The notes beneath the pieces were generated by a model. The model saw nothing but the letters and a program-made list of their open reading frames with translations, ran no database searches and was not told the DNA's origin. From contig JAOLAV010000003.1 of NCBI GenBank assembly GCA_028338895.1, positions 2,598 to 66,597 on the forward strand: DNA of 64,000 bases. Direction: 5' to 3'. The stretch comes from Fidelibacterota bacterium. Lineage in GTDB: Bacteria > Fidelibacterota > Marinisomatia > Marinisomatales > UBA1611. This document shows, one piece after another, positions 477 through 50,210 of this stretch. Position 1 is the stretch's first letter. Every line of letters begins with the position of its first letter. The position numbers were made by a program, and so were the translations under genes.

Positions 477-926
477 CTATTCAGACAATGAAGTTTTTGG
501 TGAAAGTTGAAATGATCTATTTTTTTGATTGAAAATGATATATGATGTTATAAGCAATGTCATGTTCTCCATGAGCTTCTGCCATCCAACCATCTGACCT
601 TCTTTTAAACCACATCCACATTCAATGTTAAATCCTCTTATCATTGCTTGAATAACAAGTAAGTTGAACATAATTAGTAGCACACCACTAATAAGTGATG
701 ACCCGTCAATCATTATTCCAAGTATCAATCCAAGACCAATAAAAACTTCAATCCATGGTAGAATAATTGCAACTACATTCTCTAGACCTAAAGGTATAAA
801 ATGATAATTAGATATTTCTCTTGCAAATTGCTGAGGGTCTAAAATTTTCTGATAGCTTGCAACTAGAAAAACAATTCCAAGAACAACTCTCATACATAAT
901 ACTATAACAGGATGAATTTTATTCAT
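477..926 (-). CDS. MauE/DoxX family membrane protein
   Basis: Multi-TM protein with an ECGCG motif (FNIECGCGL) typical of MauE/DoxX. Start placed at MNKIHP (926), which overlaps the rhodanese stop by 8 nt. The longer track ORF (to 983) would overlap the upstream gene. Confidence 0.7.
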   Translation of the reverse strand: MNKIHPVIVLCMRVVLGIVFLVASYQKILDPQQFAREISNYHFIPLGLENVVAIILPWIEVFIGLGLILGIMIDGSSLISGVLLIMFNLLVIQAMIRGFNIECGCGLKEGQMVGWQKLMENMTLLITSYIIFNQKNRSFQLSPKTSLSE

Positions 927-1401
927 TTTCTTGTACCTGGTAGCCTGATTCTGTCCACATCTTCCACCCTCCTTTAAAAACAAGTATATTCATGAAACCC
1001 CAATCCTGTAGATTGTATGCAAGATCTTCACTTGACCCACAATCATCATCGCTACAATAAATAACAAATGGACGATCGAGACCTACTAAGGTGTCAATTT
1101 TTGCAGCTAAGACCTCAATATCATCATCATATATTGCGCCCGTTATGAAGCCTTCTTTTATATATTCTTCTTCTCTAGCATCTACAAATAAAGTTCCATC
1201 ATTATGTAAATTAAAAGCTACGCTAAGTCCAATTTCTCTAATCTCAGGTTCGCTAAGAATAGCAGATAAATCATTTTGATTCTTTATCAATAGAATTGGT
1301 TCAGCAACCCAAGGAAGACTCTTTGGTTTTATAATATTAATAATTATTCCAATAAATACAGGAATAGTTATCAAAAAAATTATCTGCGTTTTTATTTTCA
1401 A
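919..1401 (-). CDS. Rhodanese-like domain protein with N-terminal TM anchor
   Basis: FVIYCSDDDCGSSEDLAYNLQDWGF...FKGGW matches the rhodanese active-site loop region. One N-terminal TM helix. Confidence 0.7.
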   Translation of the reverse strand: MKIKTQIIFLITIPVFIGIIINIIKPKSLPWVAEPILLIKNQNDLSAILSEPEIREIGLSVAFNLHNDGTLFVDAREEEYIKEGFITGAIYDDDIEVLAAKIDTLVGLDRPFVIYCSDDDCGSSEDLAYNLQDWGFMNILVFKGGWKMWTESGYQVQENE

Positions 1402-1423: not shown

Positions 1424-2635
1424 TTAATGATTATGTCCATCATGGTTAGAATGGCCAGAGTTCAGTTTATTTCTTTTTTTACTCTCAGATTTTGATTTCT
1501 GTAGATTGGTTTTAGGTGTTCTATCCAAAGTTGTACATGTTAAAAGAGAAGAGTTTACAAAGTCAAGCATCTTCGTATTGTCTTGAACTTTTCGACTTAA
1601 GGCTATATTCTTATACTCCAAGGTGTTTATAGCGGATTCAATCGCTTTCTCAGCTTCAATCATATCCGTTTTATATCCATCTATTAGTTTTAAAACATTA
1701 CTTTGATCTGCATAAATTTCTTCAAGTGATTTACTAGGATCTTTCTTTTGAAGTCTCTCAAATCTTTTATTAATTTGTTTAATATTCTTTTCTTGAGCTG
1801 AAACATCAACAAAAGGTTCTTCAGGGTTCTTCATTCCTACATCTACAGTCAATAGATATTTACCTTGTTTACCACATGAATAAACTAATGGACCACCTTG
1901 TTCTTGAGGAGTATTGGATCTTGTCATATTTGTACTACCACTGGTAATAATAAAATCAGCCTCTGGAAAGTCTTTCGCAAGGGTTGCTTGCTTTCCTCTC
2001 TCAATATTTACAAGCAGAACTATTACATCTACTTCATTAAAGATTAACTTAATATACTTATTTCCGGCATCTAAATAATTATCTATTTTCATCGACTTAG
2101 AGGTATCAGGTAAATTATCCATCAATCCAATAATTCCAATATTTAGACCACCTTTATTAATAATTTTAAATGGTTCAAAGATCAGCTCATTCGTATTATA
2201 TTTTTTTAAATTAGCCGAAAGAAATGGAATCTCTGTCTTATCAGATATCTTTTTTAAAAAAGACAGTCCATTAAGTACCTCATAATGACCAATATTTATT
2301 GCATCACAACCAATCTCACTATAACCATCTACTATAGCTTCCGCTCTAAACAATTCAGATTTTTTATTATTTTTAGTTATTTTGGAAGTACTAAAAAAAA
2401 GATCTCCAGCATCAAGAATTAATGGATCTATTCCAGTTTCTCTCAAAGAATTTATTTTAGTAAGTCTTCTAGACAGACCGCCTAGTGGATTTTTTTTTCA
2501 GCCACATGGATCAAGTTGTCCGTGAACACTTCCGGACATAATCATTGTAAAAGACCCACTTGAAGTGTCTGAACAAGAAAAAAGTGTCAGAGACATCATG
2601 CTTATTATTAAAAAACTTTGAATTTTTATTTTCAT
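1424..2635 (-). CDS. Metallophosphoesterase/5'-nucleotidase-like lipoprotein with in-frame TGA (candidate selenocysteine) at 2498-2500
   Basis: ATG at 2635 lies 3 nt after the yciH stop. N-terminus MKIKIQSFLIISMMSLTLFSCSD (lipobox) then SGSVHGQLDPCG-TGA-KKNPLGGLSRRLTKINSLRETGIDPLILDAGDLFF, all in one frame. The track ORF (from 2446) lacks the signal peptide and the first phosphoesterase motif. His-rich C-terminus. Confidence 0.6.
2469..2485 (-). promoter_or_regulatory. SECIS-like hairpin downstream of the TGA at 2498-2500
   Basis: RNA CUAGGC-GGUCU-GUCUAG: 6-bp stem with one G-U pair. Counting U of UGA as +1, the apical loop GGUCU occupies +22 to +26. Confidence 0.4.
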
Positions 2636-2638
2636 TTA

Positions 2639-2965
2639 CTAACCACCACTTAGTTTAGCTTGGTAACCTCTATTGAGTAATAGCTTTTGAATTACTTCTC
2701 TTTTATTGCCTTGTATTAAAATTTCTTTATTCTTTACTGTTCCACCAACTCCACATTTTTTTTTAAGCTCTTTACAAATATTCGATAATTTATATTCAGG
2801 TTCAACAAGACCTTTTATAATACTAACAACCTTTCCTCCACCTTTACGATCTAAATGAATACGTATGTTTTGTTGAAAAGGCTCTGTCGCTTTTTCTGGA
2901 ACGGGTGTTTCAAAATCATTATTTAAAGAATCGGTTGAATAGACGATACAATCTTGGAGTTTCAT
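2639..2965 (-). CDS. yciH: Translation initiation factor SUI1/YciH family
   Basis: GGGKVVSIIKGL...LKKKCGVGGTVKNKEILIQGNKRE...L...GY is the SUI1 fold signature. 108 aa. Confidence 0.85.
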   Translation of the reverse strand: MKLQDCIVYSTDSLNNDFETPVPEKATEPFQQNIRIHLDRKGGGKVVSIIKGLVEPEYKLSNICKELKKKCGVGGTVKNKEILIQGNKREVIQKLLLNRGYQAKLSGG

Positions 2966-25725: not shown

Positions 25726-26274
25726 TTGCTATTTGGAAGTAATATTAAGAGTACCTCCAAAAGAATCAATAAACCAATTCCGAAGCAGTACATGCAAGAT
25801 ATCTTCCAATGCGATGAAATTGACCCTACATATCGTTTATTTTGGAGAATCATGTATTATACTGGCTTTGACCCAGTAGATGCCTTAAACCTAACTCCTG
25901 CGAACATAAACAATGAGAATGATACAATTTTTACCGACAGAGGTAAGAATGATAAAGAAACTTTTATTATTCCTATTGCTGATAGTTTAAAAAATCATGA
26001 TCTATTTAATTTGGGAGATAAGTTTCCGCAAAAACTGCATAAAGGAAAGCTTCGTGAATCATTGAAAATACTTAGGAAGTATTTAAAAAAGTTCGGATAC
26101 AATGGATATGTTAGTTTCAAATGTTTGCGACATACCTTTAATCAGAACTTAGCAGAGAATGGAATTGATGGTGCGATGAGAACAAAAGTTCTAGGTCAAA
26201 CAGGTAAGAATACGAATCGGACTTACACCCATCAAAACAATGAAATGCTAAAAGAAGCTATGAGGAATTTTTGA
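25726..26274 (+). pseudogene. 5'-truncated tyrosine recombinase remnant (catalytic domain only)
   Basis: ...YYTGFDPVDALNL..., FKCLRHTFNQNLAENG and LGQTGKNTNRTYTH are recognisable integrase boxes. The box I Arg position is not conserved. There is no N-terminal DNA-binding domain and only 90 nt separate it from the giant gene start. TTG pseudo-start. Confidence 0.6.
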
Positions 26275-26275
26275 G

Positions 26276-26336
26276 AACGTGATACATGGCAAAAACATGG
26301 CAAAACGATTTTAAAACGTGATACAAACGTGATACA
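26276..26336. repeat. Cluster of 11-bp direct repeats (candidate arm-type recombinase sites)
   Basis: AACGTGATACA at 26276, 26315 and 26326 (the last two in perfect tandem). ACATGGCAAAA at 26284 and 26295 (perfect tandem). Confidence 0.8.
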
Positions 26337-26452
26337 TTTCATGCAATATATACTAAAAACGCCTATATATACGACAAATAGTAAATTCTAAAAGAAGCAA
26401 AAAAGGGATGATTTAACACCCCTTTTCTCCTCGTGAAACACTTTTCTCCTCG

Positions 26453-26511
<59 letters not shown>

Positions 26512-26530
26512 GTTATGAGCGAGCCTTTGA

Positions 26531-26549
26531 GTAGCATATGGGTAGCATT
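26531..26549. repeat. Arm-like block GTAGCATATGGGTAGCATT (two GTAGCAT at 11-bp phase), left end of island
   Basis: 18/19 identical to 39306-39324, same orientation, 19 bp from the att core and 26 bp before the integrase ATG. Confidence 0.6.
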
Positions 26550-26574
26550 CCAACCATAACAAATAGGAAATGTT

Positions 26575-27452
26575 ATGGCTTCATTATACAAGAAAAGAGA
26601 TGTTTGGTATCTCGCTTTAACAATCAATAACAATAGAGTTACTCGAAGTCTTAGAACCAAAGACTATAAAGTCGCTAAGTCTATTAAACCACATGCTGAG
26701 TCAGCACTGATCGCAGAGCTTAGTGGCTTTGTCACTAAGAATGAAAATCTATCCTTTAATCATCTCTGTGAACGCTTCTTAACCTACAATCATAACTGGT
26801 CTAAAAATACCTATAAGCTCATTAAGCATATACCACCTCCCATCTTAATGGTAAACCACTTCCAACCAATCCAACTAGTAGAGCTATTCATACTCGCCAT
26901 ATTAATCAGTGCTGGAACTGGGGATTGAAGCATAATCTAGTGACTAAAGCATTCAAGCTGCCTGGAGATATTAAAGGTGAAGCGAGGCTAAGAACTTTTA
27001 CAAAGAATGAATTAACTAGTTTGTTTGATAATATACACGATCAGGACTTTAATGCTTTTGTACGCTTTGCTTACTATACTGGCGCTAGAAGTGGTGAAAT
27101 ACGCTCTATTCTGAGAGATCAGATACATGATGGATACGTTGTCGCTTATGGTAAAACTGGGCGCAGAGTCATCAAACTGAATGATCAAGCTCAAGAGTTA
27201 TTAAGAGATCAATCAATACTCTGGTCTTATTCAAAAGATTATGTTAGCCATAAGTTTAAAAAAGAGGTTCGTAGACTTAACATTAGAAATGCTCGTTTTC
27301 ATGATTTAAGAAGAACTTTTGGGTTAAACCTGATCAAACAAGGCATGTCTATTTATAAAGTAAGTAAATTACTGGGACATGCTTCCGTTAGAACAACGGA
27401 ACAACATTATGCACCACTGCTTACTGTTGACATTGAGGACTTTAAACTATGA
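26575..27452 (+). pseudogene. int: Phage-type tyrosine integrase interrupted by one frameshift near 26830-26845
   Basis: N-terminal part MASLYKKRDVWYLALTINNNRVTRSLRTKDYKVA... runs to ...NTYKLIKHI in frame 1. It continues as ...SHLNGKPLPTNPTSRAIHTRHINQCWNWGLKHNLVTKAF... in the +2 frame. Catalytic ARFHDLRRTF and LLGHASVRTTEQHYAP boxes are intact. Confidence 0.8.
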
Positions 27453-40712: not shown

Positions 40713-41678
40713 TTATAAATCTTTAACACATCTAAAACCAAAATTAGTATCTCTATAATCTGGCTTTAATTTGTATCTACGAGTTACATTACAAAACACA
40801 TCATTACTAAACCAAGACCCTCCGCGCACAACCTTTTCCGTACCATAGTCAGGACCTTTAGGATTAGATTTATTCGCTATTTGAAAATAATCATCATGAT
40901 ACCAGTCAGCACACCATTCCCAAACATTACCACTCATATCATAAAGTCCTAATTCATTTGGTCTTTTTTTAGCAACCGGCTGTTTACTATCAGTATTTGC
41001 TAGAAACCAGGCCACTTCATCAATTTTGTTAGAGCCCGCATAAGCTTTAAAATTCTTCCTGTAAGATCCACCTCGAGCAGCATATTCCCATTCGGCTTCT
41101 GTTGGCAATCTTTTACCAATCTTTTTTGCGTAGTCCATGGCATCAAACCATGAGACATTTTCAACCGGACATTCCATACATCCGGTATAATCGGAGGCAT
41201 ATTTCCCCATAATATGTCGATATTCTCTTTGAGTTACTTCCGTCTTATCAATTAAATAACTACCAAGCATTACTGTATGTTCTGAATTTTGATTCTTTTT
41301 TGCGTTTGTATTTACCCTAGTATATTGGCCCCCATCAACATAGCTCATCATATCAGGTATGGTGACGATACGAAAACTGATTACTTTTCCTACAATAAAA
41401 TCCTTATCTATTAAGAGCCAATTAATTTCATTTTTCTTACCGGGTAAAACGTTATCACCTAAATCGCCCTCAGCATCTTTAATATAAGAATAAGTCTCAC
41501 CAGCATCAATGGAATATGTCAGAGCAACTTCATCACCTTTAAAAAGATCCCCTGACATATCATACTGAACAGATATACTCAAGCCATCTTGCAGAGCTCT
41601 TACATTTTTATATGTTTGCGCTGATCCAATTGAGACAAGCAACAAAAAAAGTGATATTACTAAGTATTTTTTTTTCAT
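40713..41678 (-). CDS. Formylglycine-generating enzyme (SUMF1/FGE-sulfatase) domain protein
   Basis: VTQREYRHIMG, VENVSWFDAMDYAKKIGKRLPTEAEWEYAARGG, GNVWEWCADWY, RGGSW and FGFRCV motifs. Confidence 0.8.
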   Translation of the reverse strand: MKKKYLVISLFLLLVSIGSAQTYKNVRALQDGLSISVQYDMSGDLFKGDEVALTYSIDAGETYSYIKDAEGDLGDNVLPGKKNEINWLLIDKDFIVGKVISFRIVTIPDMMSYVDGGQYTRVNTNAKKNQNSEHTVMLGSYLIDKTEVTQREYRHIMGKYASDYTGCMECPVENVSWFDAMDYAKKIGKRLPTEAEWEYAARGGSYRKNFKAYAGSNKIDEVAWFLANTDSKQPVAKKRPNELGLYDMSGNVWEWCADWYHDDYFQIANKSNPKGPDYGTEKVVRGGSWFSNDVFCNVTRRYKLKPDYRDTNFGFRCVKDL

Positions 41679-49157: not shown

Positions 49158-50210
49158 TTAAGAGATTTCTGAACTCGTTTTCTTCATATAAAATTTAGCT
49201 AATTGATCTTTATAGTATTTACTCTCAGAATCAAAATTGAGACATTTCTCAATTTCAATAATTGCACTATCATATTCTTTTAATTTATAAAATAATTCAG
49301 CTTTTGTATCAATAAACATAAACTTTTCTTTATCATTTTCAGCATTTTCAATAGCTAATGTAATTTTTTCTAATGCTATTTCTAAATGAATTTCTAATTG
49401 ACTCATCCTCCAGCAGAAGCTATTTAACATGGTTGGTGTATTTTGTGTTTCTAGGCTAATAAGTTGAAGAAAAATATCGGCTTCGAGTTTATTCTCATTA
49501 CCTTTTTTTCGAATAAAGTACATTGCCTCACTGAGTGCTACTTGAACATTATTACTGCCAGAATTTTCCTTAGCATATGCGATAAGAAGTTCATGGCTTT
49601 GATCTTCTCTGGCTTGATATAAAATGGAGAAAAAATTAGCAACACCTGAAGAATCAAACCCTGATGCTAAAATAGCGTTAATCATTCTTTTAGCAGATGC
49701 AATATCACCTCTTGATTCGTACTTTTTAGCTAGAGTAAATAATGTACTGAAATTTTCTGGATCTGATTGAAAATCTAATAATAGGCTTGGAATGGTATTC
49801 TTACCCGATTTAATTCTTTTTAATTCTTTTAAAAAAAAGTTTGGAGCTAAATAGCCTATAATCCTATCAATTTCTTCACCTCTACTATTTACTATAATTG
49901 TAGTCGGAAATCCTTTAATCTTATACTTTTTTGCAATTTCAGGACCAGTTCCTTTTTCTGCATCAACTTTGAGACTTAAAAGATTATTATTTGCAAATAA
50001 TTTCACTTCATTGTTTGAATAAGTATCAGCATCCAGCCTATCGCACCAAGTTCACCATTCGGTTTCAAAATCAATTAAAATAAGTTTATCTTTAGAGTCT
50101 TTTAAAATCTGATCTAATGTTTGATTTTTAATCCAAGGATATGGATTACTAACACTGCTGCAGCCTAAAAAAAGAAGTAAGGCATAACATATAATTAATA
50201 AGTTTTTCAT
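49158..50210 (-). CDS. Thioredoxin-fold plus TPR-like lipoprotein with in-frame TGA (candidate U-x-x-C selenoprotein) at 50052-50054
   Basis: ATG at 50210 overlaps the thioesterase stop as ATGA. MKNLLIICYALLLFLGCSS lipobox, then ...KLILIDFETEW-TGA-TWCDRLDADTY...GFPTTIIVNSRGEEI in a single frame. The track ORF starts only at a GTG after the TGA. Confidence 0.65.
50023..50042 (-). promoter_or_regulatory. SECIS-like hairpin downstream of the TGA at 50052-50054
   Basis: RNA GAUAGGC-UGGAU-GCUGAUAC: stem with one A-G mismatch. Apical loop at +20 to +24 from the U of UGA. Confidence 0.3.

Follow-up and report, generated by a model that had tools for sequence, protein, structure and literature searches.

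The 64,000-nt window analysed here (positions 2,598 to 66,597 of contig JAOLAV010000003.1, from a Fidelibacterota bacterium) has a G+C content of about 30%. On its minus strand, at 1424-2635, lies a gene whose frame is interrupted by an in-frame TGA codon. Judging from comparisons of nucleotide and translated sequences, this codon very probably encodes selenocysteine (Sec), as residue 46 of a lipoprotein of SAR406 bacteria. The gene and its parts, including a hairpin that resembles a selenocysteine insertion sequence (SECIS), are as follows.

1424-2635, minus strand: full UshA-like predicted selenoprotein gene, 403 sense codons including UGA-46, stop TAA at 1424-1426 (from the translation and NCBIfam model NF041198)
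2573-2635, minus strand: lipoprotein-type signal peptide MKIKIQSFLIISMMSLTLFS-C with lipobox Cys21, assigned by inspection of the sequence
2504-2506, minus strand: TGT codon of Cys44 in the C-G-U motif, Cys in 107/107 distinct clade genes
2498-2500, minus strand: UGA predicted to be read as Sec, residue 46 (from TGA conservation, Cys-aligned homologues, and independent DNA and RNA assemblies)
2469-2485, minus strand: SECIS-like hairpin with 5′ arm CUAGGC (2485-2480), loop GGUCU (2479-2475) and 3′ arm GUCUAG (2474-2469)
1427-1453, minus strand: C-terminal His-rich tail HSNHDGHNH (from the translation and homologue comparison)

The frame starts with the ATG at 2635-2633, encodes MKIKIQSFLIISMMSLTLFSC...SGSVHGQLDPCG up to the TGA at 2500-2498, continues with KKNPLGGLSRRL... 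and ends at the TAA at 1426-1424, with no further stop between the TGA and the TAA. The immediate context of the codon is QLDPCG-TGA-KKNPLGG. Upstream, yciH ends in TAG (2641-2639), which is followed by TAA, and the ATG of the selenoprotein gene is found 3 nt downstream. A previous description of this DNA, made by inspection without database searches (the sequence-only reading), had given the frame, the signal peptide and the position of the TGA, and all of these statements held when the frame was re-read and translated. Open reading frame (ORF) finders divide the gene into a 45-aa ORF and a 340-aa ORF. The hydrophobic N-terminus ending in [SA]C is retained in full-length homologues. At the other end of the protein, most clade members have the motif H-x-G-H-[ND]-H at or near the C-terminus, and H401 does not vary in alignment A1.

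A protein search with the read-through translation gave 343 relatives. The closest of these (45-98% identity) are either about 335-350 aa long and start after the TGA, or are 390-407 aa long and display a “W” at the TGA column. In the DNA of one “W” entry, locus L001, the codon is TGA; thus the “W” entries appear to be code-4 translations of short, low-GC contigs. At the nucleotide level, HGQLDPCG followed by TGA is found in 82/82 loci, i.e., 80 loci from a metagenome scan, L001 and the window. A scan of one genome per species gave 36 loci, and the TGA is in all 34 that include the region, for a total of 116/116 related loci. The codon for Sec is thus in all 116 members, and no Cys form was seen within the clade. 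Species-representative loci that have a phylum label come from Candidatus Marinimicrobia / Neomarinimicrobiota (SAR406) metagenome-assembled or single-cell genomes, with the exception of one 2.9-kb contig that is binned as Gammaproteobacteria and carries a related locus; the rest are labelled “uncultured bacterium” or “bacterium” only. The closest species representative is 61% identical to the window protein and the metagenome contig L002 is 98% identical.

An A8 homopolymer directly follows the codon, and public gene calls are truncated at the TGA. Both would fit a sequencing or assembly error in which the true codon is TGC or TGT, or a recent pseudogene. A consensus error had also been considered in the sequence-only reading, and assembled contigs from metagenome and metatranscriptome runs were used as independent checks. 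Three metagenome runs, each from a different study, provided contigs that span 2300-2750 and show differences only at 2592, 2600 and 2658; 2498-2500 and the A-run are free of substitutions and indels. Four metatranscriptome runs provided contigs over 2420-2580, and the one difference listed is at 2462; here also the TGA and the A-run are unchanged. In addition, the TGA persists across the 116 loci, whose identity ranges over 41-98%, the A-run differs among them (AAAAAAAAA, AAAAAGAA, AAAGAAAAA) with the frame always kept, and the peptide sequence is strongly conserved on both flanks of the TGA. The reading as an error or pseudogene is already refuted by the 116-locus conservation and the independent assemblies, and the probability left to it is negligible.

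To place the TGA column in a wider family, an exhaustive search of cluster representatives was used, and it returned 4501 relatives. In 48 distant homologues (19-42% identity, with a match spanning the site) the column has C in 33, W in 9 and other residues in 6; the W in the 9 sequences presumably represents TGA again. The distant-homologue consensus is N-V-x-G-E-x-x-P-C-G-C-x-x-x-P-L-G-G-L-A-R-R. In these alignments the column reads as a classic Cys/Sec pair, with Sec predicted in place of the second Cys of PCGC, and homologues with PCGC at this position had been correctly named in the sequence-only reading.

The use of TGA elsewhere in the window was also assessed. The 42 other ORFs of ≥130 aa end in TAA (23), TGA (10) or TAG (9), and for the TGA-ended accA, rmlD and lepA the NCBIfam matches extend to the last model positions. 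Thus the genome is not recoded and TGA is a normal stop in this window, as had been proposed. Genetic codes 4 and 25 were considered as recodings and were rejected on this stop-codon usage.

The TGA at 2498-2500 might then be a true stop as well, and the locus would encode a 45-residue lipopeptide and a separate 340-residue cytoplasmic protein whose start codon is TTG 2446 or one close to it. These are exactly the two ORFs given by ORF finders, and most database entries begin after the TGA. However the downstream start is not conserved, as entries begin at MGGLSRR, at MRETG and at other points, and the 15 codons between the TGA and those starts are conserved like the remainder of the protein. 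It should also be noted that loss of the first strand and the signal peptide would leave the 5′-nucleotidase fold incomplete. A true stop is thus considered extremely unlikely.

The hairpin downstream of the UGA is 17 nt long. It starts at the 13th nt past the UGA, which leaves a spacer of 12 nt, and with the U of UGA as position 1 its loop consists of G22 G23 U24 C25 U26. When 63 distinct sequences are aligned, standard pairs occupy 95.5% of hairpin cells, and the loop GGUCU is invariant with the exception of GGGCU in 2/63 sequences. None of 500 column shuffles matched the pairing or the covariation score of the hairpin, and when the 3′ arm was slid by 1-3 columns, pairing fell to 22-55%. Pair 27-39 is GC in 40 sequences, AU in 15, GU in 6 and UA in 1, and pair 30-36 is CG in 61 and UA in 2; compensatory changes are found at two hairpin pairs. 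RNAalifold, run without a hint, returned the same five inner pairs. U17 and A31 are both invariant and are predicted to form a pair (UA 63/63), and the consensus helix shows no bulge.

Selection on the RNA is also evident at synonymous sites. Codons +6 to +8 are GGC GGT CTG in 105 of 107 distinct genes, with a synonymous entropy of 0.13 bit, as compared with 1.5-2.4 bit for conserved Gly, Leu, Pro and Ser codons nearby. Both GGC and CTG are rare in the remainder of these genes, at 12% of Gly codons and 9% of Leu codons, respectively. The structure CUAGGC-GGUCU-GUCUAG with G23/U24 in the loop had been put forward in the sequence-only reading, and the pair counts, RNAalifold and the frozen synonymous sites bear it out. 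Folding of the single sequence, which had been suggested as a check, gave a different result: the minimum free energy structure of 2440-2503 is another, shifted hairpin. Support for the hairpin is thus comparative only, because the single-sequence energy is not significant. Taken from the alignment, the hairpin at 2469-2485 is a conserved SECIS-like element and a putative SelB site.

These data suggest how the codon would be decoded. The UGA at 2498-2500 would be translated as Sec, the mRNA hairpin 12 nt past it presenting G23/U24 in its loop where the E. coli fdhF SECIS shows them to SelB. SelB with Sec-tRNA(Sec) would then be brought to the ribosome.

A scan for TGA-split frames revealed a second selenoprotein gene in the same window.

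49158-50210, minus strand: thioredoxin-like UxxC selenoprotein gene, with TGA at 50054-50052 and hairpin at 50025-50041

In its product, a lipoprotein signal peptide is combined with a thioredoxin-like domain and a TPR tail. The frame reads ...DFETEW-TGA-TWC..., so that the TGA is at the first Cys of the thioredoxin CxxC motif. Homologues at this column have C (13) or a “W” that is in fact TGA (6), or are truncated (4), and the TGA is present in all five fetched loci. The hairpin begins 10 nt past the UGA and consists of 6 bp and the loop UGGAU; its pairs vary between G-C, A-U and G-U among the five loci, and the copy in the window has one A·G mismatch. A 4HBT thioesterase gene lies upstream, and its TGA stop and the start ATG of this gene overlap as ATGA. 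This second gene is a classic thioredoxin-fold UxxC selenoprotein.

Returning to the gene at 1424-2635, the top NCBIfam match of the read-through protein is NF041198, “UshA_like_PCGU, UshA-like (seleno)protein” (E = 4.9e-69). The next matches are to the UshA, SoxB, NadN and cyclic-nucleotide phosphodiesterase models. Pfam gave no match to the read-through protein, including the metallophosphoesterase model. The gene had been presented in the sequence-only reading as a candidate new selenoprotein, and this does not stand: NF041198 is its best family, and COG0737 UshA-like CxU was already in the 2008 Global Ocean Sampling study. There, “COG0737, UshA-like”, CxU, is represented by 76 Sec sequences in 20 samples and by 92 Cys homologues, and UshA-like CxU is counted among previously characterised families (Zhang & Gladyshev 2008, PMC2398784). 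The gene is thus a short-form, sub-cut-off member of the known UshA-like CxU (PCGU) selenoprotein family; it is real, but it is not new.

Several points weigh against this reading of the gene and of its decoding. Searches of the 64-kb window and of 1.13 Mb of related contigs yielded neither selA, selB or selD nor a tRNA-Sec; those contigs are flanks of one gene and so say little. In particular, ARAGORN detected no tRNA-Sec in the window and 118 related loci (the 1.13 Mb), Rfam at gathering thresholds showed no match to the tRNA-Sec family or to a SECIS family, with tRNA matches only, and an NCBIfam scan of 30 further window ORFs did not reveal selA, selB or selD. A tblastn search of these one-gene flanks with E. 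coli SelD and SelA, for which approximate queries were used, also gave no matches. The decoding machinery is therefore inferred, and the incorporation of Sec is argued at the level of nucleotide sequence. As for the hairpin, it has no bulged U17 as in the E. coli element, its stem is only 5-6 bp, and the single-sequence fold energy of 2440-2503 does not stand out from shuffles (z = 0.18). The NF041198 score, 233.3 bits, is below the curated cut-off of 275, and only positions 2-400/519 of the model are matched. Finally, the loop that carries residue 46 is modelled by AlphaFold with a predicted local distance difference test score (pLDDT) below 50 (residues 39-46).

Read-through without Sec must also be considered, i.e., genome-wide or local reassignment of UGA to Trp or Gly, or near-cognate suppression that inserts Cys or Trp, with a hairpin that only slows the ribosome. 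Several public pipelines do give W under code 4, and the Sec machinery was not directly seen. Against this, TGA ends 10/42 window ORFs, at family-model ends; distant homologues have Cys at the column and not Trp or Gly; the loop GGUCU is at the SelB-contact position of fdhF; the protein belongs to a curated selenoprotein family; and the same window has a second Cys-aligned TGA, in a thioredoxin CxxC motif. Such read-through is very unlikely, and Sec is the preferred reading of UGA-46. The doubt that remains on Sec comes from the unseen decoding machinery and from evidence that is confined to nucleotide sequence. Organisms listed as Sec-utilizing include SAR406 single-cell genomes, and three others are given as having SelD alone (PMC5029168, Table S2); in PMC8318568 Marinimicrobia are present only as a bin. 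Together with the second Cys-aligned TGA gene of the window, the listing of SAR406 as Sec-utilizing gives indirect support for a Sec-decoding organism.

Calcineurin-like metallophosphoesterases bind a di-metal centre with the motifs D-x-H, G-D, G-N-H-[DE], H and G-H-x-H. The selenoprotein was compared with the di-metal ligands of UshA known from the literature. In alignments, motif I N-D-x-H is changed to G-S-V-H, GNHE to GHYE (clade consensus G-k-y-e) and the GHxH region to S-G-S-T; the aspartates of DAGD are invariant and one motif I His is also retained. A set of motifs competent for metallophosphoesterase catalysis was thus not found. The overall fold is nonetheless that of the UshA N-terminal domain: the AlphaFold model has a mean pLDDT of 80 and a predicted template modelling score (pTM) of 0.79, a Foldseek search with it places E. 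coli UshA first (E ~2e-17, ~290 aligned columns), and a PDB profile search also leads to the N-terminal domain of 5′-nucleotidases. The C-terminal substrate-binding domain of 5′-nucleotidases is absent, and helices, a conserved RLQKKDP segment and the His-rich end are found instead. The term metallophosphoesterase, as used in the sequence-only reading, is thus apt for the fold, that of the UshA N-terminal domain, and not for the active site, in which most metal and catalytic residues are replaced. Because of these replacements, the protein appears to be a metallophosphoesterase by fold only and not a conventional di-metal phosphoesterase.

The product would be a lipoprotein, exported across the inner membrane and with the fold of the UshA N-terminal domain. 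Its functional centre would be the loop H38-G-Q-L-D-P-C44-G-U46 just past the first strand. The C-G-U loop and the His-rich tail most likely form a redox-active selenenylsulfide or a chalcogen- or soft-metal-binding site, and not a phosphoesterase site; as the Sec loop is modelled at low confidence, the chemistry of the site is proposed by inference only.

The genes that accompany the selenoprotein gene are the following.

2639-2965, minus strand: yciH, SUI1-family translation factor (PF01253, TIGR01158)
919-1401, minus strand: rhodanese-domain protein with loop YCSDDDCG (PF00581), directly downstream of the selenoprotein gene
477-983, minus strand: MauE/DoxX membrane protein with ECGCG motif (PF07291, E = 1.2e-26), last of the cluster

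The start of the MauE/DoxX ORF was set at the first possible TTG; translation probably begins further inside the ORF. The order yciH, UshA-like gene, rhodanese, MauE/DoxX is well kept among related loci that extend far enough to include the neighbour in question: yciH is present in 93/95, the rhodanese gene in 90/98 and the MauE/DoxX gene in 80/87, and a tRNA-Gly usually follows the cluster. This conservation agrees with the operon context of rhodanese and MauE/DoxX that the sequence-only reading had described. All loci are from one phylum-level lineage, and the conserved order is therefore weak evidence of functional coupling. Three metatranscriptome contigs of 2.4-3.0 kb run unbroken from the MauE gene through the rhodanese and selenoprotein genes into yciH; these are consistent with one transcript, DNA carry-over being possible.

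The active-site loop of the rhodanese is acidic (YCSDDDCG), as opposed to the usual basic CRxGxR, and the protein weakly matches NF041203, a rhodanese-related (seleno)protein model. The ECGCG of the MauE/DoxX protein is reminiscent of PCG[C/U] in the selenoprotein.

The selenoprotein probably works with the co-transcribed rhodanese-like and MauE/DoxX proteins. A wider proposal, offered tentatively and more likely wrong than right, is that the clade represents a “pseudo-phosphoesterase” with fixed Sec, its di-metal site having given way to the C-G-U loop and the His-rich tail. With the rhodanese and MauE/DoxX proteins it might form an uncharacterised periplasmic chalcogen (S/Se) or soft-metal relay, universal in a lineage that is among the most abundant bacteria of the dark ocean, and the adjacent YciH might aid the decoding of UGA as Sec.

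Other features of the window lie at a distance from this cluster.

25726-27452, plus strand: two tyrosine-integrase fragments (PF00589), one of which is split into 26575-26928 and 26925-27452
26464-26520, minus strand: partial tRNA-like sequence flanked by the integrase fragments (Rfam tRNA 31 bits, model positions 10-63 only; no call by ARAGORN)
17362-37598, minus strand: three giant ORFs of 2756, 1499 and 1700 aa (from domains and G+C)
40713-41678, minus strand: lipoprotein with a formylglycine-generating-enzyme/sulfatase-modifying domain (partial matches to GldK, EgtB and SenA, the selenoneine synthase, in the C-terminal domain only)

The integrase fragments and the tRNA-like sequence resemble a decayed attachment site at which an element had integrated. 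Adjoining these remnants, the giant ORFs are in a stretch with a G+C of 0.35-0.39 (elsewhere 0.29-0.31). They jointly carry C-type lectin, LRR, FG-GAP and beta-helix domains, and the 2756- and 1499-aa ORFs have type-IX-secretion sorting tails. The product of 40713-41678 is probably a GldK-like protein and not an enzyme of selenium metabolism.

The interest of the finding is mainly in annotation. Public calls for the Sec-TGA genes give Trp (code 4) on short, low-GC marine contigs and truncated proteins on longer contigs. Both types of mis-call hide selenoproteins, and truncation drops the signal peptide and the active-site loop; the curated NCBIfam model in turn misses the clade by about 40 bits. 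Mis-called Sec-TGA codons are found in proteins P0004, P0011-P0013, P0272-P0277 and others, and in loci L001 and L118-L121. The finding itself is a correct rediscovery and leaves knowledge of Sec decoding unchanged. Specific to this work are a sub-cut-off, mis-called clade, Sec that is fixed in every member seen, and a SECIS that is definable by covariation. SAR406 bacteria would thus spend selenium on an exported lipoprotein that has Sec and never Cys within the clade. Work on the function of the UshA-like CxU family could reasonably start from the conserved three-gene cluster, and the hairpin offers a clean minimal SECIS defined by covariation (17 nt, GGUCU loop).

Comparison with known systems begins with the RNA element. 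In the SECIS of E. coli, the upper stem-loop spans nt 15-31 (17 nt) at a distance of 11 nt from the UGA, with apical G23/U24 and a bulged U17 (PMC8659212). Like the fdhF element, the hairpin described here is a 17-nt stem-loop within the ORF just past the UGA, its loop is GGUC(U) with G23/U24 at an equal count from the UGA, and the RNA is under selection beyond that on the protein. It differs in its spacer (12 nt as opposed to 11), in its plain 5-6 bp helix without the bulged U17, and in having no conserved extended lower stem.

At the protein level, the clade shares with NF041198 / COG0737 UshA-like CxU proteins the P-C-G-U just past the first strand of a 5′-nucleotidase-type domain, the existence of Cys homologues and a common presence in surface-ocean metagenomes. 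However its members are short (~390-407 aa), end in a helical region and His-rich tail, and have the Sec codon in all 116 cases. A 2026 review places NF041198 beside a separate “family 2” (NF049981, CxxU) (PMC13188914). The match of the selenoprotein to the UshA-like CxxU family is weak (E = 2.7e-7, 30 bits, cut-off 140) and the spacing is CxU here and not CxxU; the gene is not a member of that family. With the N-terminal domain of E. coli UshA and other 5′-nucleotidases (1ush, 2ush) and with SoxB, the selenoprotein shares the fold, the motif II Asp (DAGD), one motif I His and a periplasmic or cell-surface location. It differs from them in that the motif I Asp, the Asn-His of GNHE and the histidines of GHxH are replaced and the C-terminal substrate-binding domain is missing.

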